Source: Fimbriimonadaceae bacterium (GTDB lineage Bacteria > Armatimonadota > Fimbriimonadia > Fimbriimonadales > Fimbriimonadaceae). Taken from it: 39,007 nucleotides of DNA. Positions 1,233 to 36,999 of this stretch are shown piece by piece (the first letter of the stretch is position 1; each line of letters opens with the position of its first letter). Below the pieces are notes generated by a model, which had not been told where the DNA came from, ran no database searches, and saw nothing but the letters and a program-made list of their open reading frames with translations. The stretch spans positions 1-39,007 of the forward strand of contig JANWJY010000140.1 of the NCBI GenBank assembly GCA_025451715.1. The letters are read 5' to 3'. Position numbers and translations under genes: made by a program.

Positions 1233-2111
1233 CTAAACGCTGATCTCCTTGGCACCCAAAGCAGTGAGTGCGTCCTTCTGCGCGGCGAGGGCGCTGACGC
1301 GGACCTGGCGTCCCGCGCGAAGCGCTTGTTTCGCAAGCCTATCCATGTTGCCACCGGCGGCGACGCAAACGAAGTCGAGCTGGTGGGAGAGCGAGGCGCC
1401 CAGGCGGTCTCGGAGCCGGTTGCTGTTGGGGTGGTAGCCGCCCTCCGGGCTGACCCAAGTCACGGCAAGATCGGTCTTGGCGTCGAACTTATACCGCCAG
1501 AGCCTGGCAGCGCGAAACGGTTCTTCGTTCAAGTCTGCGCCGAAAACTTGGAAAAACCCCTGGTCCAAGACGAGCACTCTTGGTGCGCCCCACCGCAACG
1601 GCACGACCGCTGCCCGCTGATATTCGGGGGTGTCGTGTCCGCTCACGAGGACGCGCCCGTCGAGCACGCCTTCTTCCACGGACTTCTCGATCAGCTCAAG
1701 TGCCTCGGGCGGCGACTTTCGCGAGCTCATGACGCAGAAGGTTCGACCGTCGAGCAGCCTTGTGTTGCCGTAGAGGAACAGGACGCCCGGCGGGTCGGTG
1801 TCCATCGCCTCGATGCGGCGCGGGTAGTGCGCGTCGGCGGCGGAGACGATGTCGATGTCGTAGCCGTCGAGGCGTTTGAGCAACGCTTCCGCTTGTTTGA
1901 CCCGTTCCTTTGGGTTGTTCGCCCACTCCCTCGCGGCTTTGACCGTAAACCGATACTCTTCGCGCAGCGCCTCTTCGCCGAGTCGCATGAACTCCTCGAT
2001 CGACCTGCCGAGGAGGTCGTTGCGCGTGAGCACGCGCGTGACGGTGCGCCCTCCGATGCCGGGCGTCAGTGAAAGCGCAACGACGAGCGTCCTTCGCGAG
2101 ACGTTCTTCAT
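1233..2111 (-). CDS. divergent DprA/Smf-like (SLOG-fold) protein
   Basis: N-terminal HhH-like LSLTPGIGGRTVTRVL, then a DprA-like core (VLFLYGN, VLVSGHD, SNRLRDRLGASLS, VAAGGNMDRL) with several canonical DprA residues replaced. Start placed at ATG 2109-2111, which forms an ATGA overlap with the upstream TGA. The 337-aa track ORF has an Arg-rich extension that is unlikely to be real. Confidence 0.65.
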   Translation of the reverse strand: MKNVSRRTLVVALSLTPGIGGRTVTRVLTRNDLLGRSIEEFMRLGEEALREEYRFTVKAAREWANNPKERVKQAEALLKRLDGYDIDIVSAADAHYPRRIEAMDTDPPGVLFLYGNTRLLDGRTFCVMSSRKSPPEALELIEKSVEEGVLDGRVLVSGHDTPEYQRAAVVPLRWGAPRVLVLDQGFFQVFGADLNEEPFRAARLWRYKFDAKTDLAVTWVSPEGGYHPNSNRLRDRLGASLSHQLDFVCVAAGGNMDRLAKQALRAGRQVRVSALAAQKDALTALGAKEISV

Positions 2112-2833
2112 GCGACCCTCCGGGCGGCGTCGAGCAGCGCCTTCACGGCCTTGTCGCCGTGCAGCGACATCGCATCGCCGACCTCGCCGTGCGAAAGCGT
2201 GCTTTCGGAAAGTCCGGACGCAGGGTTTGTCACGACGGCGAGACACGCGTAGGGCACGCCCGCCTCGCGCATCGCGATCGCCTCGTTAGCGGCGGTCATA
2301 CCGACGACATCTGCACCGAACTCGCGCAAGAGCGAGACCTCGAACGGCGTCTCGTACCGCGGTCCATTCATGCACGCGTAGACGCACGGCGACACCGCTC
2401 CGGAAAGAAGCGACGACATGGGGAACGGAGAAGAGAAGTCCGTGTGGCGCACGTCGCGCTGGAACAGTGTGGTTCCGCGCCCGCTCGCGTCAAGGAAGTC
2501 CGTGCACGATGCGAACGTCCCGACGCCCCAATCCGGACGCAGCGATCCGACGGCGGCAGACGACACGCACCCGCGGACGCCAAGACGGCGAAGCCCGTCC
2601 GCGATCGCTTCGTACGAAACGGCGTGCGGCGGCACTCTGTGCCCGATCGCGTGCCTGCGCACGATGACTAGCGACACCCCCTCATAAGTGACAAGCCGAC
2701 CGCGCAACGCCCCGAACGGCGTCGGCACGCAGAGCGCATGTCCGCCGAGCGCGGCCAGGCGCTCACCGATCCCGGTGCCACCGATGAGCGCGACGTCGGC
2801 CTTCAGCACGGGTGCGATGTTACCGTGGGGCAT
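2108..2833 (-). CDS. mtnP: S-methyl-5'-thioadenosine phosphorylase / purine nucleoside phosphorylase (PNP_UDP_1 family)
   Basis: Motifs ALIGGTGIG, MNGPRYETPFE, GADVVGMTAANEA and LAVVTN. Confidence 0.8.
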   Translation of the reverse strand: MPHGNIAPVLKADVALIGGTGIGERLAALGGHALCVPTPFGALRGRLVTYEGVSLVIVRRHAIGHRVPPHAVSYEAIADGLRRLGVRGCVSSAAVGSLRPDWGVGTFASCTDFLDASGRGTTLFQRDVRHTDFSSPFPMSSLLSGAVSPCVYACMNGPRYETPFEVSLLREFGADVVGMTAANEAIAMREAGVPYACLAVVTNPASGLSESTLSHGEVGDAMSLHGDKAVKALLDAARRVA

Positions 2834-6164: not shown

Positions 6165-6254
6165 TCTGACCCATACTTGCGGGAACCTTGGAGCCCTTGC
6201 CGACATTATCAAGGTCAACCATAGTTGTGTCTGTGGCAGGATGGGTCTTTCTCT

Positions 6255-6782
6255 ATGCGCACGCCCAATCGTGCTCGAGAGTTCGAGCGGACGGTGAAGG
6301 GCGAGCTTGCGGTTCTTTATCGCGTGGCTCGCCGCATGGGCGTGTCCGCCGAGCAGGCCGAGGACCTGGTCCAGATCACGCTCGTCAAGGCGTTCCAGGC
6401 CTGGGACAGCTTCGACGGCCGGTACCTACGGAGCTGGCTGATCCGGATCCTGCGAAACGAGCGGCTGATGGCCCTACGGTCAGAGCACTCGGAGTCCTCG
6501 ATCGAGGACACGCCGGACGCCGAACTTTGCGACGGGCCCTTTTGGGACGAAGTAAGCTGGAAGCTTGAGGCTGAGCGGGTTCTAGTGGAACTAGATCGCC
6601 TGCCGGACATTTACCAATTGGCGATCCAGCTCATTGACGTGGAACAGCTTACATACGAAGAGGCGGCCCGGGTCTTGGAGGTCCCGATCGGGACGGTGAG
6701 GTCACGGCTCTTCAGAGGGCGAGAAATGCTCCGGAACCGGTTGCAAGGGACATCCGGCACGCTTGAGCAGGTGCATTCATGA
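6255..6782 (+). CDS. ECF (sigma-70 family) RNA polymerase sigma factor
   Basis: Region 2 (DLVQITLVKAFQAW, SWLIRILRNE) and region 4 (LTYEEAARVLEVPIGTVRSRLFRGREML). First in-frame ATG is at 6255. Confidence 0.85.
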   Translation: MRTPNRAREFERTVKGELAVLYRVARRMGVSAEQAEDLVQITLVKAFQAWDSFDGRYLRSWLIRILRNERLMALRSEHSESSIEDTPDAELCDGPFWDEVSWKLEAERVLVELDRLPDIYQLAIQLIDVEQLTYEEAARVLEVPIGTVRSRLFRGREMLRNRLQGTSGTLEQVHS

Positions 6783-7468
6783 GGATCGATTGGCAGATGT
6801 ATGAAGACGGCCAGCTCGGGCCCGAGGAAATGAGAGAGGCGGATGACGCCTTGCGCTTCGACTCCGGAGCGCGCAAAGAGCTCGAGGGCTTGCGCTCGTT
6901 CCGAAAGTCCGTGCGCGAGGCGGCGCTGCGCGAGCGGGTTCCGCAGAGGAGCCTTGAGCGCCGGCTCGACATGGTCGTCGGCCAGACGGCGCGTCCGTCG
7001 GGGCGAGTGCGCCTAGCGTACGGTGCAGCCGCGGTGTGTGCGCTCACATTCGCGTTTTTGGCCCTGAACAGGTTCGTACTAACGGACGACACAGTCGAGG
7101 TTCGAGAGCAATTTGACGATGTGGGTGCGGCCGCGGACTGGGCTTCTGATCGAAGCCACATCGAGATTCCGGATATTCAGAAGCTCGCGGTAGGACAGTT
7201 CGGCTCAGTGCACGCTGCGAGCGGCTGGGCGTGCTTCGACTACGCGGTCGACGGCGAGACGGTCCACGTTTTGGTCTCGCAAGGCGTGGCCAGGAAAACG
7301 GGCTGCCACAGCGTTTCGACGAAGGCGGGCGTAGTCTATGTCCAGGTGGGCTCTTCCAACGTACGGCTCAACCTTAGAGGGCTGCTGTTCGTTGTGATGG
7401 GAACGAACTTGGACAGGAACATTTCGGTCGCGGAGTCGCTAGGCGCCCAACTCGGACCCATCGGTTAA
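6779..7468 (+). CDS. anti-sigma factor (single-pass membrane protein)
   Basis: ATGA overlap with the sigma gene stop. Short N-terminal cytoplasmic domain, then a hydrophobic segment AAAVCALTFAFLAL. Confidence 0.6.
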   Translation: MRIDWQMYEDGQLGPEEMREADDALRFDSGARKELEGLRSFRKSVREAALRERVPQRSLERRLDMVVGQTARPSGRVRLAYGAAAVCALTFAFLALNRFVLTDDTVEVREQFDDVGAAADWASDRSHIEIPDIQKLAVGQFGSVHAASGWACFDYAVDGETVHVLVSQGVARKTGCHSVSTKAGVVYVQVGSSNVRLNLRGLLFVVMGTNLDRNISVAESLGAQLGPIG

Positions 7469-14452: not shown

Positions 14453-15130
14453 ATGGACAGCAAGAGGGCATTTACGCTGATAGAACTGCTGGTGGTGATC
14501 GCGATCCTCGCGATCCTAGCGGCGTTCCTTTTCCCGGTCTTCACACGGTCAAAGGCAGCAGCGAAGAAGTCGGCCTGTATAAGCAACCTGCGCCAGGTCG
14601 GTCAGGCGATGCTCTTGTACATTGAGGACTACGACGATGTGTTCCCACACGCTGTTGACGCAGCCGACAAGTACCGGCCAGAGATATGGTCAGGGTTCCC
14701 GGACTTCATGGCGCAGATCCCCAACATGCCGATGATGCACGAGGCGCTGCAGCCCTACGTCAGGAACTATCAGATCTTCGAGTGTCCCAGCGACTCCGGG
14801 ACGCAGGTCCTCGACACTCACCCGAACCTCGATTTCGTCACCGTGCCGACGATGTTCAACGTGTATGGGCTCTCTTACATGTACCGCACGGAGATCACAT
14901 TCAGGCACTATACGCACGGCGCGCTGCAGAACCCCGCGACGGTCAATGTGATGTTCGACGGTGCAGGAAACTGGCACGAGGGGGAACGCGCTCTCAGGCT
15001 CGACGACGTGTCGAACGGCGAGTTCATCGCACAACGCAAGAAGTTTCGCTACAACATCTTGTACGGCGACATGCACGTGAAGTCTGTGCGCTACGACGCG
15101 CTTGATGCGGCGTGGGGGACGGACCTGTGA
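14453..15130 (+). CDS. prepilin-type N-terminal cleavage/methylation domain protein (pseudopilin-like)
   Basis: N-terminus RAFTLIELLVVIAILAILAAFLFPVF. C-terminal degenerate DG-H region (NILYGDMHVK). Confidence 0.8.
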   Translation: MDSKRAFTLIELLVVIAILAILAAFLFPVFTRSKAAAKKSACISNLRQVGQAMLLYIEDYDDVFPHAVDAADKYRPEIWSGFPDFMAQIPNMPMMHEALQPYVRNYQIFECPSDSGTQVLDTHPNLDFVTVPTMFNVYGLSYMYRTEITFRHYTHGALQNPATVNVMFDGAGNWHEGERALRLDDVSNGEFIAQRKKFRYNILYGDMHVKSVRYDALDAAWGTDL

Positions 15131-18031: not shown

Positions 18032-18826
18032 CTACGGGTACATCCACTTTTGCACGCTGAACATCGGTCGCTTCAGCTGTGCGAACAGCAACCGCTTGGT
18101 GTGCCCGTCTGCCCAGAGGGTCGTGGAGCCGTTCCTGTGAAGGAAGTTGAAGTGTTCGGCCAGGTATGGAAGATGGATCGGCGGGTTCTCTAACCAGTCC
18201 ACGCTCTGCAGGAAGTTGCACATCGGGACCCTCGCGTTGTGCTCCCACACCACGAGCGTCGTAGAGGGCTCCTCCATGAGCGAGTCACTGATCCCCGATG
18301 CGTTGACCAAACCGTTGGCGTCCGTCCATAGCTCGCCGGTTCCTGGGCCGAACTCCTGGCCCGCAGCGTCCGGGTTTGTCGTGTAATAGGCGGAAGGTGC
18401 GTACTTATTGAACATGTTGTACGCCATCGCCATCTGCCAGTCGCGCGGCTGCTCGGGGCAGACCTTGATCGGTTCGCTCTTGATGTAGGGGTCGATGAGG
18501 CCGGGCTTAGGGGGGTTGACCGCCGGCTTGTTGACCATACCGTGGTAACCGCCGAAGAGCGGGCTGTTGTTGTTGTCGTAGCCGAGCCAGAACGTCTGTG
18601 GCGCCCAGCCTGGCGAGCTATCGGCATAGACCGCCGCGGGCCATACGTCGTCGTAGTCTGCCCGGTACATCAACATGGCCATTCCGATCTGGCGCACGTG
18701 GACTACGCAGACGATCTGCTTCGCCGTCCGCTTGGCCTGGACGAACACGGGGAACAGGATGGCCGCCAGGATGGAGATGATAGCAATCACAACCAGCAGC
18801 TCGATCAGGGTGAACGCGCGCCTCAT
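18032..18826 (-). CDS. prepilin-type N-terminal domain / H-X9-DG protein (DUF1559-like)
   Basis: N-terminus RRAFTLIELLVVIAIISILAAILFPVF. C-terminal H-X9-DG motif (HRNGSTTLWADGH). Confidence 0.85.
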   Translation of the reverse strand: MRRAFTLIELLVVIAIISILAAILFPVFVQAKRTAKQIVCVVHVRQIGMAMLMYRADYDDVWPAAVYADSSPGWAPQTFWLGYDNNNSPLFGGYHGMVNKPAVNPPKPGLIDPYIKSEPIKVCPEQPRDWQMAMAYNMFNKYAPSAYYTTNPDAAGQEFGPGTGELWTDANGLVNASGISDSLMEEPSTTLVVWEHNARVPMCNFLQSVDWLENPPIHLPYLAEHFNFLHRNGSTTLWADGHTKRLLFAQLKRPMFSVQKWMYP

Positions 18827-21439: not shown

Positions 21440-22951
21440 TTACTTGCCTGACTTGAGCCGTGCGTTGACCGCATCGAGCTGCTGTAGGACGGTGTCAAGC
21501 GACCACTTGCCATAGCCTTTTCGGTCGTGCTCGCGCTTGAGCCGCAGATCTTCCTCCAGCCACCGCTTCGCGTTCGGCCAGTCTTCGTAGTTTTGGAAGT
21601 GCCGGGCCAAAGTGGATGAGCGTGCCATGAGTGAGACCACCTCGTTGTTGAAGCCCGAGTAGTCGAGCCGGGCCATGTAGTCTGGTCGCAGGTCGCACGT
21701 CGGGGCACTGAAGCTGCCGCTCCAGACCTCCGTCAACGGCGGCAGGTGGTCGGGATCGACGCCTTCGGTGTTAGGCATGTAGCTGAACCACACTGTGCCG
21801 TCGGTGCGCTGGCCGCCGACGTATCCGCCGACGAACTGCACGATCTCATTTTCGGGTGTGAAGCGCGCTTCGACTCTGACCGTGCGCGGGCGCCATGGGG
21901 CTGTCGGGTTCAGAGGGACAAAGACCTCCTTCTCCAGCCTTCCGTCCTTTGACCTCTCGATGAACGGATCGTCGTGCCAATAGGTCTCCATTGGCGCCGT
22001 GTACTCGTTGCCGAGGTCGTCGGTGATGTGAAGCCTGAATCCGCGCCAAGTCTTCGACTTGTCGCCGATCTGGTACGCGACGAACACAGTGCCATCGCCA
22101 GCGACCTCGACGCTGCGAAGGACGAACGTTCCGGTCTTGGTCTCGATCGACGAGAGCGACTTCGAGGTCATCGTGTCGACGAGCCGTTGGTCGTACTCGT
22201 TCTTCGCCAGCGTAGGAACGCCTGCCTTCAAGGCAAAGTGGCTGGCAGTGAACCTCGGCGTGTAGTCGAACTCAGCAACACCGCTCAGTCGCCATCTGCC
22301 TCTCTCAAACGAGAATGCCTCAGACTTGATCGGCAACATCGATTCCTTGTCGGCGTACATCTTCGACCGACTGCGAAGGTTAGGGTCTTCGATCGTGGCG
22401 ATGACTACCGGCTTGCCGTCAAGCGCGCCGTCTGCGACGGTGACCTTGTGTCCCCAGCTCGCGACCATTTCGATCATTGAAGAGAGACCAAGTCCCTTGG
22501 AGTTGTACGAGAAGGGCCCTTCCGGCCTGTCCTCGACGATGTACGCGTTGGTCAGCGGGTCGTAGAGGTACAGCTTGCCGCCCAGATAGATCTGGGTCTC
22601 AAGTCCAGAAGCCTTCTGGAGTCTCCACTTCCCGCGGTCGTAGTCGATCGTGCCGGACTTCGTCCGTGTGCCGTCTTCGGCGACCGAGTACGACTGCATC
22701 CGCACAGTACTGACGTCCTCGAGCGCGCCCGACATCTGGTCGAGCACGCTGCGCGCTTGGGCCGTCGGCAGGACGAACACCAACAGTGCGACCACTGCTG
22801 CGCCGGTCAGGGCATACGACCACCCGCGACGAGACGTGCTTCGTGAGCCGCCCTTTGCGACCCGCTCATTGATCTTCTGCGTCAGGCCGATGTGTTCCGG
22901 CTCGGGCGTCATGGCGTCCTTGATCTGTCGTTCGAAACTGTTTTCGTTCAT
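21440..22951 (-). CDS. membrane-anchored putative anti-sigma factor with a large extracytoplasmic domain
   Basis: ATGA overlap with the upstream ECF sigma stop. Short cytoplasmic N-terminus, a TM segment (YALTGAAVVALLVFVL), then about 430 aa outside with a LolA-like beginning. The function of the large domain is unknown. Confidence 0.55.
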   Translation of the reverse strand: MNENSFERQIKDAMTPEPEHIGLTQKINERVAKGGSRSTSRRGWSYALTGAAVVALLVFVLPTAQARSVLDQMSGALEDVSTVRMQSYSVAEDGTRTKSGTIDYDRGKWRLQKASGLETQIYLGGKLYLYDPLTNAYIVEDRPEGPFSYNSKGLGLSSMIEMVASWGHKVTVADGALDGKPVVIATIEDPNLRSRSKMYADKESMLPIKSEAFSFERGRWRLSGVAEFDYTPRFTASHFALKAGVPTLAKNEYDQRLVDTMTSKSLSSIETKTGTFVLRSVEVAGDGTVFVAYQIGDKSKTWRGFRLHITDDLGNEYTAPMETYWHDDPFIERSKDGRLEKEVFVPLNPTAPWRPRTVRVEARFTPENEIVQFVGGYVGGQRTDGTVWFSYMPNTEGVDPDHLPPLTEVWSGSFSAPTCDLRPDYMARLDYSGFNNEVVSLMARSSTLARHFQNYEDWPNAKRWLEEDLRLKREHDRKGYGKWSLDTVLQQLDAVNARLKSGK

Positions 22952-23457
22952 TGGTTCTTCTCCGCGATCTTGCGGACCCGCTCTCTCGCGCGCTGGAGCA
23001 GACTGTTCGTGCCTGCGTACGTTCGGCCGAGGACCTCGGCGATCTCGGGGATGGATAGTTCCTCGAGGACTTGCAGTGTCAACGCGTCACGCTCGTCCGG
23101 CGGGAGTTGGAACAGGATGGCGAGCGCCTGCTGCGACTCGGTGCTCTGCACGAGCGCGCCGAACATGTCGGCGGTGTGGCCGTCAGTGGGCCTGAAACGC
23201 CAGAAGCCGCGCCTGCGGCGGTAGGCGTCTGCGATCTTTCTTCGTGCGATGCCGAGCAGCCAGAGGTGCGTCTCGCCCCGCTTCTTAGCCCAGTGGCGGT
23301 AGGCGTCGAGGAAGACCTCTGCGGTCACGTCCTCGGCGTCCTCTCGTGGCTTGATGCGCCGTGAGACGTAGGCGAACACCAGCGATTGGTGCGTCTGCCT
23401 TGCGTCTTGGAAGGTCTCTGCCGCCTGCGTGGTCTGTCGGGCTGTCTCGCTCACCAT
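22948..23457 (-). CDS. ECF (sigma-70 family) RNA polymerase sigma factor
   Basis: Region 2 (AEDVTAEVFLDAYRHW, WLLGIARRKIADAYRR) and region 4 (LSIPEIAEVLGRTYAGTNSLLQRARERV). Confidence 0.85.
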   Translation of the reverse strand: MVSETARQTTQAAETFQDARQTHQSLVFAYVSRRIKPREDAEDVTAEVFLDAYRHWAKKRGETHLWLLGIARRKIADAYRRRRGFWRFRPTDGHTADMFGALVQSTESQQALAILFQLPPDERDALTLQVLEELSIPEIAEVLGRTYAGTNSLLQRARERVRKIAEKNQ

Positions 23458-24421: not shown

Positions 24422-25444
24422 CTACTCTTCCGTGAAAAGGTCTGTCGGGCCATCACCCTTAAACAGCACGGTCGAAGGGGTCCAGTCTTTTGCGAAGGCG
24501 TCGGCTCTGGTCAACCACTCCTTTATTCGATCCTTTGGCTTTACGCTTTTGTCCCAGTACTCGACGAAAAGTTCGTCGGGCAGCTCCTTCGCTGCTTTTC
24601 GCATAAGGGACTCCACGTTTTGAAGCCCCTTGCGTACGTAATCTCCGCCTCTTTCGGTGCCGGCAGCACTCCCAGCAGAGAATAAGTCGCGAGTCTGCGA
24701 AGCCATCACATTGAAGTACTTGAGGAGAAAGAAGGCAACTCCTTTGTACTTGTTCTTGTCCCGAGAGCCGCCCACGATTTGAGGAAAAAGGAGGGAGGCC
24801 ACGGCACGAATCCATAGCCTCTCGTCCGGGGGTAGATTGGTATAGAGCTTTATCTCAAGCGGAATACCGGGAGCACTGTCATCCTCTAGCCACCATATGA
24901 CCTCACCGGGCTTCAGTCTGCCGCGAGCGTATTCGCGTACTTTCTTCATCTTCTGCTGCGGCTTGAGTTTGCAGAAATCTTCGTAAGACATGGACAGCCT
25001 TTCGAACAGGGGTGCTTTACCGGGCTCGTCGCTCATATCGACACAGAATCGTGGAGCGTGTGAAATACGAACGTGCGAAATCACCTGCTCGTACTTGCCC
25101 CATCGAACCGCCGGCATTCCCCCAGCTTTGCCAAACATAATCCATACTTCTTTAACGCTCTGATCCCGCATCCCCTCGAATACGCTGTTGCCCGTGCTCA
25201 GCCAACTGTCGTGGTCCGTGTACTTCACTTCAACACCGAAGCCGTTCGCGCAGATGTCTGGGAATGCGTGGCGGTGAAAACTGGGCTTCACCTTGATGTC
25301 GGAGTCGTGCGCGACTCGTTCAAGCACCTCAAGTACCCGGGCCGCGAATTTAGCAGGATCGTGATACTTCTTGCTCTCGAGAAGATCCGCGTTCAATTGT
25401 TCTGATGCCTTCGAAAGAAGGCTCTCGAATTCTGCCGTAGTCAT
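24422..25444 (-). CDS. putative type II restriction endonuclease (PD-ExK)
   Basis: FPD...GVEVK gives a PD-(D/E)xK-like arrangement near the N-terminus. The ATG forms an ATGA overlap with the stop of the adjacent C5-methyltransferase. Lower GC than surroundings. No other recognisable domain. Confidence 0.55.
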   Translation of the reverse strand: MTTAEFESLLSKASEQLNADLLESKKYHDPAKFAARVLEVLERVAHDSDIKVKPSFHRHAFPDICANGFGVEVKYTDHDSWLSTGNSVFEGMRDQSVKEVWIMFGKAGGMPAVRWGKYEQVISHVRISHAPRFCVDMSDEPGKAPLFERLSMSYEDFCKLKPQQKMKKVREYARGRLKPGEVIWWLEDDSAPGIPLEIKLYTNLPPDERLWIRAVASLLFPQIVGGSRDKNKYKGVAFFLLKYFNVMASQTRDLFSAGSAAGTERGGDYVRKGLQNVESLMRKAAKELPDELFVEYWDKSVKPKDRIKEWLTRADAFAKDWTPSTVLFKGDGPTDLFTEE

Positions 25445-26409
25445 TCCAAACAATCCGCAACCGACCGGGCGACGTGCCAGGCCAAGACGGGCGGTACTGC
25501 ATTGCCGACTTGTCGCTCTGTTTCTCGCAAGCGAGCTTCAAATACGAAATCATCCGGAAAGGACTGGATTCGCGCCGCCTCTCTCATGGAGATTCGGCGA
25601 TCTAGTTTGTAGTGAAACTGGATGTTGCCGTGGCATTCGGCGCGGATCGTGTCTGATGGCCGGTGCGCCTTGAGTTTTCTGCTCCCTTGATCGTGACTAG
25701 GACGTGCGCGGCTCCAAATGTGATTGGGAGCATCGTATTCGCGTTTTTTGATCAAGTCGGAAATCGCCTGCTCCGCAGTCATCCAATCACGTTTATCGAG
25801 CACCGGTTTGGGATGCTTGAAGAGGCGAACACCGGGGCGCGTACCCACGAAGAAAACGCGCTGACGCATTTGCGGCACACCGTAATCTGCCGCAAGGTAG
25901 AGCTCGTAGGAGACGTTGTATCCGAGGCCCTTGAACGACTTGATAATTTCATCAAGCGCGGCACGATTGTATTCTTGCAGGAGCCCTTTGACATTTTCGG
26001 CAATGAACACCTTCGGCTTTGTGCGACCAACGGCGGCGACCATTGCTCGATAGAGACCACTACGCTCACCCGCTGCGCCCGTTCGCTTGCCGTTGATCGA
26101 AAAATCCTGACACGGGAAGCCGCCAATCAGGACGTCAGCCCGTTTCGGCATGTCCTCAATCGTCTCCCAAATGTCGCCGCAGACGATGTGCCCTCCGATG
26201 TTGCGCCGATACGTTCTGCACGCGGCAGGGTTGAGATCGTTGGCCCAAGTGACGCGAAACGGGTTCCGCCGATAGCGTTTTCCGAAGACCTCGAAGCCGC
26301 CTTGAAAACCGAGATCGAGGCCACCACAGCCAGAGAACAGAGATACGACTTTGTGCTCCCTCAGAGCCGGAGAGAGCACCATTCTACGACTTAGGTCTGC
26401 GACGGCCAT
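25441..26409 (-). CDS. dcm: DNA (cytosine-5)-methyltransferase
   Basis: Canonical motifs: I (LFSGCGGLDLGF), IV (GGFPCQDFS), VI (ENVKGL), VIII (QMRQRVFFVG), IX and X (SFPDDFVF, QVGNAVPP). Start taken at ATG 26409; the track ORF starts at a TTG at 26457. Confidence 0.92.
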   Translation of the reverse strand: MAVADLSRRMVLSPALREHKVVSLFSGCGGLDLGFQGGFEVFGKRYRRNPFRVTWANDLNPAACRTYRRNIGGHIVCGDIWETIEDMPKRADVLIGGFPCQDFSINGKRTGAAGERSGLYRAMVAAVGRTKPKVFIAENVKGLLQEYNRAALDEIIKSFKGLGYNVSYELYLAADYGVPQMRQRVFFVGTRPGVRLFKHPKPVLDKRDWMTAEQAISDLIKKREYDAPNHIWSRARPSHDQGSRKLKAHRPSDTIRAECHGNIQFHYKLDRRISMREAARIQSFPDDFVFEARLRETERQVGNAVPPVLAWHVARSVADCLE

Positions 26410-26500
26410 ACGCCAATTGTGACGGATTTCTGCCCGGGTTTGACGCTCACAGGACAAAAATACTGGAAATTCGTCTACCTCTTTTACAATCCTAGGTTCA

Positions 26501-26751: not shown

Positions 26752-27363
26752 ATGGCAACAAGTCGAATCTCAAGACGGCCCGACGCGCTTCGGGACATGC
26801 TCACACAGGCATCGGCGGCGGCGACTGCGGTAGGCCTACCCTGGCCCGCGGCGGCACCGACCCCCGCACAGCTCACGGCGGGTGCGACGGCGCTCAACAC
26901 CAACGTCACGAACCTCAACAACCTCGACGGGCAGATCGCTACCGAGCGGCAGACCCGCGACACGAACGTCAACTCTGGTTTCGTGCTCATGCAGCGCGTC
27001 GATGAGGCGACCGACTCGCTGTACGGTCCCGACGGGGCGCAAAAACTCAACTTCGGTCTTCCTCCCAAGGGCACTGGCACGATTGATCCGCTGGTGAAAC
27101 TGACCGACCTGAAAGTGTACGACGGGCTCTTGCCGGGTTCGATCCGTTTTGATTTCGAGAACATCGACGGCGCGAGCTACGAAGTGGTGTGGGCGACCGA
27201 CTCCGCTTTCAACAACGTAGTCGGTTCTGCCGTCTCGACGCAGAGCGAGTACATGATCGCGGGGCTGACTTCCGGGACGCAGTACTGGATGCGCGTCCGC
27301 CCCGTTCGCGGCGGTCAGTCCGCGCCTTGGTCCGACCCGGCCACTCGCGTTGCTCCGCTGTAA
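26752..27363 (+). CDS. small protein with C-terminal fibronectin type III-like domain
   Basis: C-terminal YEVVWATDSAFNNVVGSAVSTQSEYMIAGLTSGTQYWMRVRPVRGGQSAPWSDP fits an FN3 fold pattern. The N-terminal half is Ala/Thr/Asn-rich and helical-looking. Start at ATG 26752. Confidence 0.6.
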   Translation: MATSRISRRPDALRDMLTQASAAATAVGLPWPAAAPTPAQLTAGATALNTNVTNLNNLDGQIATERQTRDTNVNSGFVLMQRVDEATDSLYGPDGAQKLNFGLPPKGTGTIDPLVKLTDLKVYDGLLPGSIRFDFENIDGASYEVVWATDSAFNNVVGSAVSTQSEYMIAGLTSGTQYWMRVRPVRGGQSAPWSDPATRVAPL

Positions 27364-28934
<1,571 letters not shown>

Positions 28935-28937
28935 GGC

Positions 28938-30731
28938 TCACCAGCTCCCGCCGCCGCCGCCGCCAAACCCTCCGCCCGAGAAGCCGCCTCCTCCCGAGAA
29001 CCCCGAGCCCCCTCCGCTGGCACCGTCCGACCGGGGAGGCGTCGAGGCGGCAGAGCCGAAGTCCGAAGTCATCGAGCGGATGTCGTGTGCGAACACGTGC
29101 GCGTAGAACACTCCGCCGTACGGGTCGTGGTACCACGAAGGCGGCTCCTTGACGATGTCGGCGAACGCCTCGTTCCATTGCTCGATCAGGTCGAAGGCGA
29201 CCGCGTAGGGAAGGTACTCCTCGTACTTGAGCCCGTCGGGCTGCTTGTCGACGACCCACGCCATGTAGTTCTCGCGGTGCCTCATCATCTCGTAGAACCC
29301 GAGCGTCTCCTGCCGGACCTGGTTGCCATAGTAAGTCCTCATCGGCATGTGCCAGCCAAGGTTGATCGCTGGGATGAGCCCAACCAGTCCACCTAGGACG
29401 ATGACCCACACGTCCGCGACGAGGGAGAACTGGGAGAGAAGGAACGCGACCAGCCCAGTGAGCAGGATCCCGAGGAAGATCGCGATGCCGCGCACTGTGT
29501 TCGGGTTGGCGCGGTAAAGGTCGCGGGTCACGAAATCCTCGTAAATCGTGCCTTTGAGCTCCATGATGTGCGGCGCGACGTGCGTCCGCAAGTCCTCTCG
29601 GGTGATCTGGCCACCTGCGCTGAGAAGGCGCTCGAGGAGCTCGTTCTCGAAAAGGGAGAGTCCCGTGGTGTCCTCTTTGTTGGTCGGGTGCAGCACGTAC
29701 TCGCGCTTCTGGAACAGCCCCTCTTTCTGCGTTAGTTCGACCGTAAGGTAGCCCTTGACGCACAGCGACATGATCCCTGCTGCGAGGTCGCGTTGGTCGA
29801 CCCTCTCATCGAGCATGGTGCCTGCCTCGGTTGCAGGTAGGGAGCTTGGCGGCTCGAACCGGACCTGGACAGGCCCGTCCTTCTTGTCGCGGCCGTGCTT
29901 TGACCAGATGGGGTACATGATCAGCATCACCACGAAGGGTGTGAGCAAGGGGAGGTACTCCGTCGCGCGCCGCAGGAACTCTTCGAGGGGTGGCGGGCGG
30001 GGCACTGCCGCCTGTGGCAGGCTCAACACAAAGGTGAGTCCCTCGTACGGTTCAAGGGGCTTCGTGCGGGATCCGGTCATTTCGTTTGGCGTTAGCATGA
30101 GGTCGACGAACGGTTCATTGGCAGTGCTCGCGGTCCCTAACTCAGTCAAGACCACGGAGTCCCGCGAGCCGTATTCGCCGGCAAAGGCGCGGGCCCTGAG
30201 CTTCGCGCCGCTCTCCTGCGGAGGAAAGGTGACGCGGAACGAAGCGGCGGTGATCTGCGTGTCCCACTCTGGCCCGGTCGCGTTCCAGTAGAGCTCGGTC
30301 CAAGGCTCCCAAGACTTGTCCTCGTGCCAGTTGAGCGCGCCGAATACCGTGTACTGGATGACATAGGTCTCGCTGCTGCCTGGCGGAAGGAAGACGTCGG
30401 CATCGCCGATTCGGATCTTGAGGTAGTCGCCCTCGCGCGTGACCTTGGTCGTGTGCCTTTTTCCGCTCTCATCGACCACGGCGCCGAGCTTGAGCTGGAT
30501 CGCCCTCTCGCTACCCGTGCCAGTCGGGTAGACGATCGGTATCGTGCGAAAAATGCCGCGCCGTGGCTCGTTGAAGGTGACTTTGATCGTCTCAGTCACC
30601 GCGATCGTGGCGTCTTTGCTGACGATGACCTCAGTGTAAAACGAGTCAATGACGTAAGGGTAGTACTGCGCAGTCGCAAGCGACGCAAACGCAGCGGCGA
30701 CTAAGCACAGGGCGGCGCGCCAGCGGGACAT
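28938..30731 (-). CDS. DUF2207 domain-containing membrane protein
   Basis: Signal peptide and N-terminal DUF2207-like region (YVIQYTVFGALNWHED, ELYWNATGPEW). Internal TM segments and a Gly-rich C-terminus (GGGSGFSGGGGFSGGGFGGGGGGSW). Confidence 0.8.
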   Translation of the reverse strand: MSRWRAALCLVAAAFASLATAQYYPYVIDSFYTEVIVSKDATIAVTETIKVTFNEPRRGIFRTIPIVYPTGTGSERAIQLKLGAVVDESGKRHTTKVTREGDYLKIRIGDADVFLPPGSSETYVIQYTVFGALNWHEDKSWEPWTELYWNATGPEWDTQITAASFRVTFPPQESGAKLRARAFAGEYGSRDSVVLTELGTASTANEPFVDLMLTPNEMTGSRTKPLEPYEGLTFVLSLPQAAVPRPPPLEEFLRRATEYLPLLTPFVVMLIMYPIWSKHGRDKKDGPVQVRFEPPSSLPATEAGTMLDERVDQRDLAAGIMSLCVKGYLTVELTQKEGLFQKREYVLHPTNKEDTTGLSLFENELLERLLSAGGQITREDLRTHVAPHIMELKGTIYEDFVTRDLYRANPNTVRGIAIFLGILLTGLVAFLLSQFSLVADVWVIVLGGLVGLIPAINLGWHMPMRTYYGNQVRQETLGFYEMMRHRENYMAWVVDKQPDGLKYEEYLPYAVAFDLIEQWNEAFADIVKEPPSWYHDPYGGVFYAHVFAHDIRSMTSDFGSAASTPPRSDGASGGGSGFSGGGGFSGGGFGGGGGGSW

Positions 30732-30802
30732 AGCCAGAATGTACCTAGGGCGGTCCGATCACCGTTGGTGGATAACGGTGGGGAAAAGAAAACTCAATCG
30801 TG

Positions 30803-30832
30803 TTGCACGCGAAATCCCGGCAGATGTAGAGT
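30803..30832 (+). promoter_or_regulatory. putative sigma-70-type promoter for the structured RNA
   Basis: TTGCAC (30803-30808), an 18-nt spacer, then TAGAGT (30827-30832) preceded by TG. Similar to the TGTAGACT before the 14453 gene. Confidence 0.3.
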
Positions 30833-30837
30833 GTTCA

Positions 30838-31603
30838 CACAGCAACCGAGGGTTGGTCTGAAGAGTCCGGAGGGCATCCCCTGGATGAAACAGAACCGGT
30901 TCATATAAAACGGTTGCGACGCAGTGAGCGAGACATCGCAGAAGACGGCTCGACCTTCGGGAAGAGAAGTCGGAAGCGTTGAACCGATCGTTCACAGCGG
31001 TATTGCGAGAGACAGGTCCGCCCGGTCGAAAGGGCAATGGCTGAGTGGACTGAGCTCCGGGCAAAGCCCGGCCCGGAGCACAGCGCTCGCAAATCTCGGT
31101 TCGCCGCTCTTGGCGGTTGGCTGATGGAAGCCGAGCCGTGGCCCGCAAGGGTCAGACCCCGCAAGGGGTCAGTTCCGCAAGGACCTAAGCAAGGCAAGCC
31201 ACAGCGGACGGCGGCTTCGGTCGCGGTTCGTAACCGCGCGGCGCCCCTAAAAAGGCGCAGCGCATGGGTTGTGGCCCACGGTCGACCAAGTGTCGGAAGC
31301 CCGCAAGGGCACGCCGGCCCAGACGCACAAGAGCGGCGGAGCGAGCCTGATTGAATCGTTGGGCCGAATCGTCGACCTTCGGGAAGGCATTTCTGGCTTT
31401 TGGATCCAACCAGGATTCGGTCGCCTCGGGCTGGCTTCGGCCAGTCCGGGCGGTCGAGCAAAATATGTCGGCGTCGCGCCTCCGCAGCGTGGCGCCGCCG
31501 TTCTTTAAGCCGGAACACCTGGGTGGCCAGGTTCGTCAAAGACTGTAATCTTGCCGGGAACCGTTGAGGGCACTCAGATTCTTGCCCCAACCCCGCGGGG
31601 TTG
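30838..31603 (+). ncRNA. candidate large structured noncoding RNA (unclassified)
   Basis: No credible ORF. At least 12 GC stems capped by GCAA or UUCG tetraloops, seen only when read on the + strand. Internal repeated hairpin modules. End points are approximate. Confidence 0.4.
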
Positions 31604-31636
31604 CGTTACAATCAAAGTTGCTGGGGTTGATATCAT

Positions 31637-32986
31637 ATGAACCGTTCAATTGCACTCTTGCTTCTCGCGTCTGTGATTACGCCGGCGATCTTCGCCCAAG
31701 AGGTGTATCACGGCACCGCCCAAATCGCGTACTTGAAGGTCAGAAACAGCGATGGCACGTACACGACAATTCGTGACGTTGGCACGATACCGATAAAAAT
31801 CACACCGATCGATGCCACGGTTGGGACCGACACCCTTGACATTCACAACCTGCCTTCCACCCTCGGCCTTACGAAAGGTGGCGGGGGAGGGTTCTTGGGC
31901 GTATCTGGGTACCAAACCGTGTACCAAAACGACACGGGATCGTACTTCGTCGCTATAGACGGCGCCAGCTGCCTTGACGACACTGTGCACACTGCGGCTG
32001 GCAACGGCAAGGCCTGGAGCATCGTCAAGTTCGGGGTTCATATTTCGGACGACCGGCGAACTGGCAAGTTCCTCCTCCGATGGCGGGGATATGCGACGTA
32101 TACGGGCCAGCTCGGCCCCGGCGTCAGTGCGTTTAGCAACGAGTTCTTCGATTCGGGGTTCTACGTGGAACGAAACCAGTTCCCGGCAACCCCGCCAGGT
32201 CAGTCTACGTTTCTCGTCGAGGGCGACATCAGTCAGTACCCCGTGTTCATCGTCCCGAACCAGACTTGCTACATGGCATCTCAGTTCCGCACACCACACC
32301 CGCTCGGACCACAGTTCGAGGATGGCGAAGGGCCGTTCACATTGGACTGGAACGTGTTCGCCAACAACGGACCGCAAATCGGGACGAGCCAGGACATGTT
32401 TTGGTACGACGTGCCCGCCGATGGTGTCTATGACGAGACCGAAGTGGACATGTTCGACCCGGAGGATGGCGGTGTCGGGGCCGGTAACTTCGCATTCAAG
32501 GCGCAAGTCAATTCCGGCCCAACGAACGTAGTCAATCCGTTCTCGTTCAACTGGTTCCGTGGCACACACATGTCTGGAAACGTGGGGAGCCTTTGGTTCG
32601 ATGACGGGAACTACAACGTGGGGCGGTCGGGCGCAACCCCGATCGTGACCGAGGCACCTGCACAGATCGTGGTCGAGTCGTTCTCACCGACCAACTTTCC
32701 AACTGCACTGAGAATCGACGCTCAGGCTAAAGTGAATACAGTTAACCTAGGGATGAGGGTTGAACTCTGGAACTTCACGACGTCACAGTGGGTCCAAGTT
32801 GCCAGTGGCTCAGTCGGCACGAGCGATACGACCCTGATAGGGTTCGCATCGAACCCGGGACAGTGCGTTCAAGCAGGAACTTCGACGATCCGCGCAAAGG
32901 TCAGTTTCTATCGGATCGGCGCGACGCCAGTCTTCGTATGGTTGGCTTCGGTCGATCGCATAGTCTGGACGATCACTTCACCGTAG
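31637..32986 (+). CDS. secreted hypothetical protein (signal peptide, no recognised domain)
   Basis: N-terminus MNRSIALLLLASVITPAIFAQE. 449 aa, rich in Gly/Thr/Asn/Val and beta-rich looking. TACAAT at 31607-31612 lies upstream and a strong terminator downstream. Confidence 0.7.
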   Translation: MNRSIALLLLASVITPAIFAQEVYHGTAQIAYLKVRNSDGTYTTIRDVGTIPIKITPIDATVGTDTLDIHNLPSTLGLTKGGGGGFLGVSGYQTVYQNDTGSYFVAIDGASCLDDTVHTAAGNGKAWSIVKFGVHISDDRRTGKFLLRWRGYATYTGQLGPGVSAFSNEFFDSGFYVERNQFPATPPGQSTFLVEGDISQYPVFIVPNQTCYMASQFRTPHPLGPQFEDGEGPFTLDWNVFANNGPQIGTSQDMFWYDVPADGVYDETEVDMFDPEDGGVGAGNFAFKAQVNSGPTNVVNPFSFNWFRGTHMSGNVGSLWFDDGNYNVGRSGATPIVTEAPAQIVVESFSPTNFPTALRIDAQAKVNTVNLGMRVELWNFTTSQWVQVASGSVGTSDTTLIGFASNPGQCVQAGTSTIRAKVSFYRIGATPVFVWLASVDRIVWTITSP

Positions 32987-35853: not shown

Positions 35854-35904
35854 GCCGCACAGTATGCGCGATAGGCGTGAGTTATTGGAACCTCGAAGCC
35901 GCCT

Positions 35905-36999
35905 TCAAGCGCGGGCATACCGAGAAACAAGAGCGGGCCACGTGCCGCCCTCGACTGCTTCTCGCACTTCGCGCATCAGCCGGGCGTAAAACGCGAGGTT
36001 GTGTAGCGTCGCGAGGCGTGCGGCCAGCGGTTCGTCGGTCTTGAACAGGTGGCGGATGTAAGCGGCGGAGTACCGCTCTGTCTGTGGGAACACGGAGTCC
36101 GGATCGTGCGGCCCGCCGTGGTTGGCCCACTCCTGGTTTGCGGCGTTGATGCGCCCGTTCAAGGTATAGAGCGCGTGGTGGCGCGCCATGCGCGTGGGCA
36201 GCACACAGTCGAACATGTCGATCCCGCACGCGACCGCGTGGATGATGTCCTGTGGGTGCCCGACGCCCATCAGGTAGCGCGGCTTACCGGCCGGGAGTAG
36301 CGGCGCCGTGTACTCGACCACTGGATACTGCATATCGGTCGGTTCACCCACCGACACTCCGCCGATAGCGAAGCCGTCAAATTCCAGATTTGTTACAGTT
36401 CCCGCGCTTTCCTTACGCAAATCCTCGTGAGTACCTCCCTGAACGATCCCGAACACGGCTTGCCCCTCGCGCTTAACAGAGAGGTTGCGCGGCGCCCATT
36501 GGTGCGTCCGTCGCATCGCCTCCGCTGCCCCATCCTTGGTGCAAGGGAAGGGCGGACACTCGTCGAGCGCCATGCTGACGTCGACCCCGAACTGGCCTTG
36601 GATCTGGATCGACCGTTCTGGAGTGAGGAACGTCTCGTTGCCGTCGAGGTGGCTTCGGAAGGTCACTCCCTCGTCGGTGATCTTGCGGCTCTTTGCGAGC
36701 GACATGACCTGGAACCCGCCAGAGTCGGTGAGGATCGGCTTGCTCCACGACATGAACCTATGGAGACCGCCGAGCCTCTCGATGAGGTCCGCCCCCGGCC
36801 TTTGTGAGAGGTGGTAGGTGTTGCTCAGGACAAGCTCGAACCCGAGCTGCTCGAGGTCCTCTGAGCCGAGCGTTTTGACCGTGCCGTATGTGCCGACGGG
36901 CATGAAGCAAGGAGCCTCGACAGTGCCGTGTGGGGTATGGATGCGCCCCCGTCTGGCGCGGGTGTGCGGGCACTGGGCTAGGAGCTCGTAGCGGACCAC
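35905..36999 (-). CDS. tgt: tRNA-guanine transglycosylase (queuine tRNA-ribosyltransferase)
   Basis: Motifs RARRGRIHTPHGTVEAPCFMPVGT, LTDSGGFQV, GGVSVGE and DCVLPTR. GTG start. Confidence 0.92.
   Translation of the reverse strand: MVRYELLAQCPHTRARRGRIHTPHGTVEAPCFMPVGTYGTVKTLGSEDLEQLGFELVLSNTYHLSQRPGADLIERLGGLHRFMSWSKPILTDSGGFQVMSLAKSRKITDEGVTFRSHLDGNETFLTPERSIQIQGQFGVDVSMALDECPPFPCTKDGAAEAMRRTHQWAPRNLSVKREGQAVFGIVQGGTHEDLRKESAGTVTNLEFDGFAIGGVSVGEPTDMQYPVVEYTAPLLPAGKPRYLMGVGHPQDIIHAVACGIDMFDCVLPTRMARHHALYTLNGRINAANQEWANHGGPHDPDSVFPQTERYSAAYIRHLFKTDEPLAARLATLHNLAFYARLMREVREAVEGGTWPALVSRYARA

Follow-up and report, generated by a model that had tools for sequence, protein, structure and literature searches.

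What occupies the 905 nt between two genes at positions 30732-31636 of a 39,007-nt stretch of Fimbriimonadaceae DNA (contig JANWJY010000140.1; the whole stretch is called the window below)? The gap separates a gene for a DUF2207 membrane protein (28938-30731, - strand) from a gene for a 449-aa secreted protein, here called P449 (31637-32986, + strand). An initial annotation, made from the sequence alone, proposed that it holds a large structured non-coding RNA (ncRNA) of no known family, read on the + strand. That core claim was upheld by nine loci, covariation, strand asymmetry, the non-coding character of the element and the lack of an Rfam match, and we consider it highly probable that the + strand specifies a genuine conserved structured RNA. 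The best overall explanation of the locus is probably a previously undescribed structured ncRNA of ~670 nt, most likely acting as a stand-alone scaffold RNA.

The gap is composite, comprising upstream signals (30767-30832), an RNA core (~30838-31505) and the promoter and leader of the downstream gene (31512-31636). The large RNA of the initial annotation stands, but its extent does not: the RNA was taken to span all 905 nt and is here reduced to ~670 nt (30838-31505), the last ~125 nt being the promoter/leader of the downstream gene.

Coding signal, conservation and covariation

Overall GC content of the window was 61-62%, and GC content at third codon positions (GC3) was ~0.75-0.9 in its real genes. 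Shadow open reading frames (ORFs) of 105-229 aa cover the gap in several frames, and gene callers annotated such ORFs in two of the related loci described below (L003 and L004) and in two further contigs, as might be expected of a decayed pseudogene or an unrecognised protein-coding gene. Against this, and in line with the earlier statement that the gap holds no credible ORF, the longest ORF (30901-31590, - strand) had a flat GC content across codon positions (0.63/0.63/0.62) and no match in a Pfam search. The gap alignment contained 35 distinct indels, of which only 6 were multiples of three and 29 were frame-shifting, and variable columns were distributed over the codon phases as 105/124/106, indicating no 3-nt periodicity of substitutions. 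When a gap shadow ORF was compared with 5.8 billion proteins, only two matches were obtained, both of them shadow ORFs lying over the same RNA element. The element is non-coding, and a coding origin is extremely improbable.

The element was found at nine independent metagenomic loci, representing about six distinct lineages, by the following routes.

L001, L002 (with L003, a near-identical duplicate), L004 and L008: gap of ~855-905 nt aligning over its full length, with long invariant runs; on contigs of P449 homologues.
L010: only the 3' part, at a contig edge; found through a P449 homologue of 43-45% identity.
L073: full copy; found by a protein search with the gap shadow ORF.
L074: full copy; found by an RNA-only motif scan of metagenomes.
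L075: full copy; found by contig look-up.

L073, L074 and L075 were near-identical to one another. Conservation in relatives had been named in advance as a check on the proposal, and the core RNA was 63-94% identical between lineages across the nine loci; DNA identity of the flanking genes was 65-78% for the amidohydrolase and 59-67% for P449. The RNA is thus about as conserved as the neighbouring coding DNA, or above it. Searches without a protein query were less productive. A scan of 185,579 species-representative genomes for the motif TCCGCAGNGNGGCGCCG-N8-38-GGAACA, the second anchor of which is a promoter motif outside the RNA, gave 61 matches, all of them chance occurrences in GC-rich genomes and none fitting the profile of the element. 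A first metagenome scan with a three-anchor pattern, which was checked on known copies, returned no locus; a second scan, anchored within the RNA only on the loop of helix H9 and GGTTCGCC, retrieved one locus, L074. The name tag of the P449 family and a PEPCK marker (72-78% identity) pointed to Armatimonadota, as Fimbriimonadaceae or Armatimonadetes, and the only organism name attached to the P449 family was that of an Armatimonadota metagenome-assembled genome. The RNA appears to be restricted to a narrow clade of uncultured Fimbriimonadaceae-like Armatimonadota.

There was one copy of the element in the window and one per locus, in a constant syntenic position. A repeat or miniature inverted-repeat transposable element, which the initial annotation had set down as an outcome that would count against it, was ruled out, along with other mobile elements, by this single copy at a fixed syntenic site and by the lack of matches in viral contigs, phage genomes and plasmids.

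Covariation was assessed on MAFFT alignments, built from sequence alone, with the consensus structure calculated by RNAalifold. Across six copies and within the core only, there were 208 consensus pairs, with 93.7% of cells paired, and 54 of the 208 changed on both sides, cf. 19.9 +/- 3.4 in shuffled alignments (0/500) and 6-10 in controls with slid partners. With the five distinct copies the consensus comprised 239 pairs (93.1% of cells paired), 49 of which showed two-sided changes relative to 20.1 +/- 3.4 after shuffling (0/500) and 6-12 when partners were slid by 1-3 columns. Compensatory substitutions above controls, the generic mark of a structured ncRNA, were therefore found in the consensus structure, by the kind of analysis that the initial annotation had suggested for its listed stems, and about 200 base pairs are kept through compensatory change. 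Terminal loops were swapped within their class (GCAA/GAAA/GUAA), with one change from UUCG to GCAA, and 288 of the 668 core positions were invariant in the six copies.

Folding energies differed between the strands. Folded as the + strand, the whole gap had a minimum free energy (MFE) of -423 kcal/mol (z -6.85), as against -367 kcal/mol (z -3.06) for the - strand; for the core (30838-31505) on the + strand the MFE was -331.8 kcal/mol vs -282.5 +/- 5.1 in shuffled sequences (z -9.7), with a centroid structure near the MFE structure. Hairpins with GNRA or UNCG loops closed by at least 3 bp numbered 7 on the + strand of the gap vs 1 on the - strand, relative to a baseline of 2.3 +/- 1.6 in shuffles and 1.3-2.0 per equal length in the remaining window, and the RNAalifold consensus reached -252 kcal/mol on the + strand vs -183 for the reverse complement. 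The RNA is assigned to the + strand because of its G-U pairs, this asymmetry of the fold and that of the tetraloops, which agrees with the earlier reading of the signal as strand-specific. Every GCAA and UUCG hairpin listed in the initial annotation was present where it had been placed and fell within the covariation-supported consensus structure. Its repeats were also recovered: the gap has 4 copies of CCGCAAGG, and three are spaced 16 nt apart (6 in the window vs 2.1 expected), and the 15-mer TCGACCTTCGGGAAG occurs twice vs 0 expected.

These data also bear on a DNA-level explanation, in which the gap would be a long divergent promoter with arrays of binding sites and the hairpins would be palindromic operators. 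The gap does lie between divergently oriented genes and has several conserved promoter-like motifs at both of its ends. However, long-range helices covary, e.g. H12 and H11 (31095-31112/31328-31345, separated by 215 nt); the structure keeps many G-U pairs, which the opposite strand would have as A-C mismatches; the consensus fold differs by 69 kcal/mol between strands; and tetraloop classes are kept on one strand only. Regulation through DNA palindromes is consequently very improbable, and a structured + strand RNA is the reading developed below.

Anatomy of the RNA core

The core is a series of seven helical domains capped by GNRA and UUCG tetraloops, with the following parts, all on the + strand.

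30838-31505, + strand: RNA core, ~668 nt, beginning at the invariant CACAGCAA and ending after the terminal hairpin and U-rich tail.
30842-30917, + strand: Domain 1, helices H1-H4; H1-H2 invariant or varying on one side, H3 and H4 with one covarying pair each.
30920-30999, + strand: Domain 2, H5-H7; its tip is the first copy of the 15-mer, with the UUCG loop at 30956-30959.
30954-30961, + strand: UUCG hairpin at the tip of H7.
31004-31091, + strand: Domain 3, H8-H10; H9 has an invariant 11-nt loop, GAAAGGGCAAU.
31054-31062 with 31071-31079, + strand: H10, with loop AAAGCCCG; two-sided changes in 5 of 9 pairs.
31095-31345, + strand: Domain 4, H11-H23, 251 nt, multi-branched, with a 17-bp closing helix.
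31139-31186, + strand: H15-H17, three tandem 16-nt GNRA hairpins; GCAA or GAAA loops in all copies, stems covarying.
31211-31224, + strand: H19, UUCG hairpin.
31299-31310, + strand: H23, GCAA hairpin.
31346-31414, + strand: Domain 5, H24-H28, with near-invariant flanks GCCTGATTGAA and GGATCCAACCAGG.
31372-31386, + strand: second 15-mer module, in Domain 5; H28 tip at 31376-31383.
31416-31458, + strand: Domain 6, H29-H30, CUGGC-UUCG-GCCAG on a conserved base.
31431-31444, + strand: H30, with 4 two-sided pair changes.
31465-31501 (31465-31479 with 31487-31501), + strand: Domain 7, terminal hairpin H31, with 14 consensus pairs.

Two-sided pair changes were spread over the domains, with 3 each in H5 and H7, 2-6 each in H12, H13, H16, H17, H19 and H23, and 2 covarying pairs in H28. 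Domain 4 includes the three tandem GNRA hairpins, the middle one of which is absent in the lineage of L073, L074 and L075, as well as the H19 and H23 hairpins. The duplicated 15-mer (30950-30964 and 31372-31386) caps two domains, at H7 and H28, and its losses differ by lineage, the first copy being missing in L008 and the second in L002, a pattern suggestive of a binding or docking module with some redundancy. The 7-nt loop of H31, (C/U)UCCGCA, is invariant; the hairpin is succeeded by a U-rich tail and TTTAAGCC, to 31510.

Between 31054 and 31079 the initial annotation had noted two competing pairings. The outer helix, here 9 bp (31054-31062/31071-31079), covaries, whereas the inner CCGGGC-AAA-GCCCGG hairpin is not favoured. 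A candidate pseudoknot would join GCCCG in the H10 loop (31066-31070) to UGGGC (31360-31364), and has one supporting lineage only (L004, GUCCA/UGGAC). Other long-range or tertiary elements were considered and dropped: a CCUAAG motif at 31184, resembling the 11-nt GAAA receptor, is unconserved in relatives, and a pairing of CAGCAAC at the RNA 5' end with GUUGCUG near the Shine-Dalgarno (SD) sequence is broken in L002. The outermost RNAalifold helices, which would close the structure by joining the 5' flank (GATG..GAGT) to the SD region, were likewise set aside: they consist of invariant columns without covariation and overlap the putative promoter and ribosome-binding site, and helices 32-33, which lie 3' of 31505, had poor pairing support (77-85% paired).

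Transcription signals, genomic setting and candidate roles

The signals on either side of the core, and the two genes beyond them, are as follows.

28938-30731, - strand: DUF2207 membrane-protein gene, 597 aa with a Gly-rich C-terminal tail, Pfam DUF2207 and DUF2207_C; transcribed away from the RNA.
30767-30789, no strand assigned: upstream block GGTGGATAACGGTGGGGAAAAGA, part of it A-rich and located ~40-50 nt ahead of the -10-like element; invariant alignment columns.
30823-30832, + strand: -10-like GATGTAGAGT, GATGTAnnGT in all copies.
31512-31537, + strand: GGAACA-N17-GTC, with spacing of exactly 17 nt and unrelated spacers in six of the six copies examined.
31545-31559, + strand: conserved block GTAATCTTGCCGGGA; the variable stretch after it (31560-31606) has hairpins unconserved in sequence.
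31607-31612, + strand: TACAAT, -10 of the downstream gene; invariant in all copies.
31621-31627, + strand: SD-like CTGGGGT, invariant in all copies, just before the ATG.
31637-32986, + strand: P449 gene, encoding a 449-aa secreted protein with an N-terminal signal peptide.

GATGTAnnGT is the candidate promoter of the RNA, and the block at 30767-30789 may be an UP-like or regulatory element of that promoter or, alternatively, part of the divergent DUF2207 promoter. The initial annotation had proposed TTGCAC-N18-TAGAGT at this place; only the -10-like GATGTAnnGT is conserved there, and the TTGCAC -35 (30803-30808) is not. At the other end, H31 with its U-rich tail (31465-31510) is the candidate 3' end or terminator: a terminator scan of the window called H31 terminator-like, and the hairpin is kept in all copies, including the distant L010, with a U-run of only 2-4 nt in relatives. 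The palindrome at 31589-31602 that had earlier been put forward as the end of the RNA is unconserved, and the hairpin at 31465-31501 is the likelier end. Three hairpins that had been counted with the RNA (31517-31532, 31565-31576 and 31589-31602) are present in the window but are unconserved and fall in variable parts, the first of them being the variable spacer of the GGAACA-N17-GTC motif; the 3' hairpins and the palindrome were dropped as part or end of the RNA.

GGAACA-N17-GTC lies outside the core and looks like a promoter of the extracytoplasmic function (ECF) sigma type, having the GGAAC-like -35, the free spacer of 16-17 nt and the CGT/GTC-like -10 of that class. The motif is absent upstream of P449 homologues that have no RNA (L005/L006 and L011), and by this comparison of upstream regions it travels with the RNA. 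The window also contains two ECF-type sigma factor genes (6225-6782, + strand; 22948-23457, - strand), each followed by an overlapping ORF without a Pfam match (6779-7468 and 21440-22951, respectively), which are possible anti-sigma factors. Downstream of the motif, the stretch 31545-31606 is presumed to be the leader of the P449 gene. The homologues L005 and L011, which have no RNA, retain TACAAT at 25-30 nt from the start codon on its upstream side; TACAAT therefore belongs to the gene, as the initial annotation had it.

The DUF2207 gene was upstream on the opposite strand in 6/6 loci in which that side was visible (L001, L002/L003, L008, L073 and L074), and a P449 homologue was directly downstream of the RNA in 9/9 loci, even where genes farther away differed (L010 and L075). 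Whether homologous gaps always precede a P449 homologue had been posed as a check, and they do; yet P449 homologues also occur without the RNA. In L005 (5001-6305) and L006 (2524-3828), a P449 homologue of 47% identity is located between gcvP subunits upstream and gcvH downstream, with an upstream gap of just 106 nt and no RNA; the gene has thus either relocated by itself or been left without the RNA through loss at this site. The P449 family comprises 23 proteins with no Pfam domain. An AlphaFold2 model of P449 (pLDDT 77.9) was all-beta with multiple jelly-roll domains, and resembled PDB structures only weakly, namely carbohydrate-binding modules and phage baseplate or fibre proteins, with nothing RNA-related.

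The constant position next to P449 raises the alternative of a giant cis-regulatory leader: the RNA, transcribed from the promoter at 30823-30832, would serve as 5' untranslated region for the P449 gene, and transcription would stop at H31 or read through it as set by a ligand, protein or temperature sensed by the fold. Co-orientation directly upstream of a P449 homologue in 9/9 loci fits such a leader, as does a terminator-like hairpin that ends the RNA just before the gene. However, at ~670 nt and seven domains the RNA exceeds the known riboswitches and attenuators severalfold in size, and the mutually exclusive terminator/anti-terminator or SD-sequestering pairings that define such leaders were not found: a covariation scan for conserved alternative helices revealed none competing with H31. 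Invariance of the H31 loop would not be needed in a plain expression platform, the conserved promoter-like GGAACA-N17-GTC and TACAAT stand between the RNA and the gene, and P449 homologues exist without the RNA and with TACAAT kept. We therefore judge the leader rather unlikely, and lean towards a stand-alone transcript, judging by the arrangement of these signals.

As such a stand-alone transcript, the RNA would be transcribed from its own promoter (GATGTAnnGT at 30823-30832, with the A-rich block upstream) and would end at H31 and the U-rich tail (31465-31510), while the P449 gene would be expressed from its own signals, GGAACA-N17-GTC, TACAAT and the SD-like block. The product would be a stable, trans-acting architectural RNA, the invariant loops and junctions of which may be surfaces for protein binding or tertiary contacts. 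It might serve as the scaffold of a ribonucleoprotein (RNP) or as a self-assembling RNA particle, as OLE, ROOL and GOLLD do, rather than by base-pairing with mRNAs; a scaffold or RNP role in particular is a plausible but tentative assignment. A more specific version, in which the RNA forms a particle, either a membrane RNP built with DUF2207 (an independent OLE-like solution in a diderm phylum) or an RNA-only homo-oligomer or ribozyme, is unlikely on present evidence. If it were true, the invariant loops GAAAGGGCAAU (H9) and (C/U)UCCGCA (H31) and the duplicated CGACCUUCGGGAAG modules would be interaction or active sites, and the constant ECF-type promoter and secreted beta-sandwich protein would tie the RNA to envelope stress or surface biology.

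Several observations weigh against a stand-alone scaffold RNA, or against the strength of the case for it. The transcript, its strand and its ends are deduced from sequence, and a sigma-70 consensus scan made no call at the proposed RNA promoter. The invariant loop and short U-tract of H31 are atypical for a plain intrinsic terminator, and the constant location of the RNA directly upstream of P449, in the same orientation, would also suit a cis-acting leader. With only about six lineages, and three loci near-identical, the covariation counts rest on few events, one or two for each covarying pair; helices H1, H2 and H24 never vary and are thus neither supported nor contradicted. Lastly, the scaffold or RNP role is drawn by analogy, and the two flanking genes both encode envelope proteins, of which P449 is secreted.

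Farther out, the genes are of housekeeping character (ProRS, amidohydrolase, MGMT-like, SDF transporter, TGT and Der), and no nuclease, reverse transcriptase or transposase gene was found near the RNA. Some further features of the region were recorded. A TGT pseudogene considered at 35854-36929 was rejected, the gene being intact on the - strand. The ProRS ORF (27189-28799, 536 aa) has odd GC content by codon position (0.80/0.52/0.63) and its L002 orthologue has 496 aa; the ORF as called probably starts too far upstream, or else it mixes frames. Between ProRS and DUF2207, L002 has a gene (1819-2232) for a 137-aa 23S_rRNA_IVP four-helix-bundle protein, where the window has a 138-nt spacer. A low-GC island at 24422-26457 (GC 0.53-0.56 vs ~0.62 elsewhere, GC3 ~0.61) contains genes for a C-5 cytosine DNA methylase (25441-26457, - strand) and a 343-aa ORF without a Pfam match (24422-25453, - strand), and looks like a horizontally acquired restriction-modification module. 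Genes with a prepilin-type N-terminal methylation motif (type IV pilin-like) are found at 14453-15130 and 18032-18826, among glycoside hydrolase and LytR-CpsA-Psr genes. The second-longest apparent gap in the window, 2247-2811 (565 nt, GC 0.66-0.69), is flanked by a DprA-like gene and a beta-CASP/RMMBL (RNase J-like) ribonuclease gene and has overlapping ORFs on both strands, e.g. 2108-2833 (- strand, 241 aa); an Rfam search of it gave no match, and it may contain a genuine gene, an extended leader belonging to the ribonuclease gene or some other feature.

Comparison with known RNA families

The initial annotation could not match the element by eye to RNase P, tmRNA, SRP, 6S or group II domain V, and a search of Rfam 15 (4227 models) likewise gave no match to these families. 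No match at the gathering score was obtained in the whole window or in eight homologous loci, with a model set that includes RNase P, tmRNA, SRP, 6S, group I and II introns, OLE, ROOL, GOLLD, HEARO, raiA, riboswitches and self-cleaving ribozymes; this was also the first check that the initial annotation had named. At E <= 10, the gap gave only short hairpin-level matches, of 11-22 bits vs thresholds of 37-218 bits, and no match to Intron_gpII or group-II-D1D4. ARAGORN found no tRNA or tmRNA in the 39-kb window. A literature search on structured or non-coding RNA in Armatimonadota or Fimbriimonas, on DUF2207 in connection with RNA, and on surveys of large RNAs returned nothing relevant.

These searches also address the alternative of a ribozyme or a remnant of a self-splicing or mobile RNA, such as an ORF-less group I or II intron, a guide RNA of a transposon nuclease or a retron-like RNA. 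The size and GNRA richness of the element resemble those of large ribozymes, and on a reading of the sequence H19 superficially recalls a domain-V-like hairpin. However, no intron, ribozyme, HEARO/omega-RNA or retron family matched even at E <= 10, and the element is outside any host gene, in single copy at a fixed syntenic site, with no reverse transcriptase, nuclease or transposase gene nearby and no occurrence in the phage, plasmid and viral collections. An origin of this kind is improbable.

To our knowledge, bacterial ncRNAs of >500 nt that are this densely structured are very rare, and if rRNA, RNase P and self-splicing introns are set aside, few classes are known (OLE, GOLLD, ROOL, HEARO and some others). 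Each known class of large ornate RNA has led to biology that had not been anticipated, including membrane RNPs, RNA-only cages and guide RNAs. The present element would be a new class from a phylum that has been little studied and is mostly uncultured, Armatimonadota, and had no prior annotation. Its phylogenetic breadth is narrow, and its alignment, consensus structure, domain boundaries and invariant loops are defined, making in vitro work possible without culture. The fixed order of DUF2207, RNA, ECF-like promoter and secreted protein gives a concrete hypothesis of an RNA in envelope biology.

Among known systems, long 5' leaders (riboswitches, T-boxes and ribosomal-protein leaders) share with the element its co-orientation directly upstream of a particular gene and its terminator-like hairpin end, but the element is 3-6x larger, is followed by independent promoter-like signals before the gene and has no anti-terminator alternative that we could find, and homologues of the gene exist without it. 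Surveys of GC-rich intergenic regions have yielded large ncRNA candidates, with the smtA motif among those of high priority (PMC11109978). The element resembles such candidates in being an unusually long, GC-rich, gene-free region with covariation, too large for a riboswitch; it differs in being absent from Rfam 15 and, at ~670 nt, considerably larger than most of them, and genomes of Armatimonadota go unmentioned in these surveys.

ROOL and GOLLD usually occur in association with prophages and tRNA genes. Both are large and ornate, and form homo-oligomeric cages that consist of RNA only (PMC12286853). Like them, the element is large, tetraloop-rich and multi-domain, with modular hairpins gained or lost between lineages; unlike them, it occurs in a housekeeping chromosomal context, with no tRNA in the window and no phage or viral match, and it has no covariance-model match to either.

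OLE (Rfam RF01071), by comparison, is an ornate RNA of ~600 nt from Bacillota, mostly extremophiles and anaerobes, that forms a membrane-associated RNP with OapA, OapB and OapC. It is comparable to the element in size, in its dense helices in series and in its many invariant loop and junction nucleotides, and both are single-copy RNAs of one lineage with an adjoining membrane-protein gene and a function not obvious from context. The two differ in that there is no sequence or structure match between them and that the element is from Armatimonadota rather than Bacillota; the adjoining membrane protein is DUF2207, for which no relation to OapA is claimed; and an RNP is known for OLE, whereas one formed by the element would be hypothetical. 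Because every test of membership in a known family that was considered failed, we file the element as a new class, placed only loosely within the large ornate bacterial RNAs.

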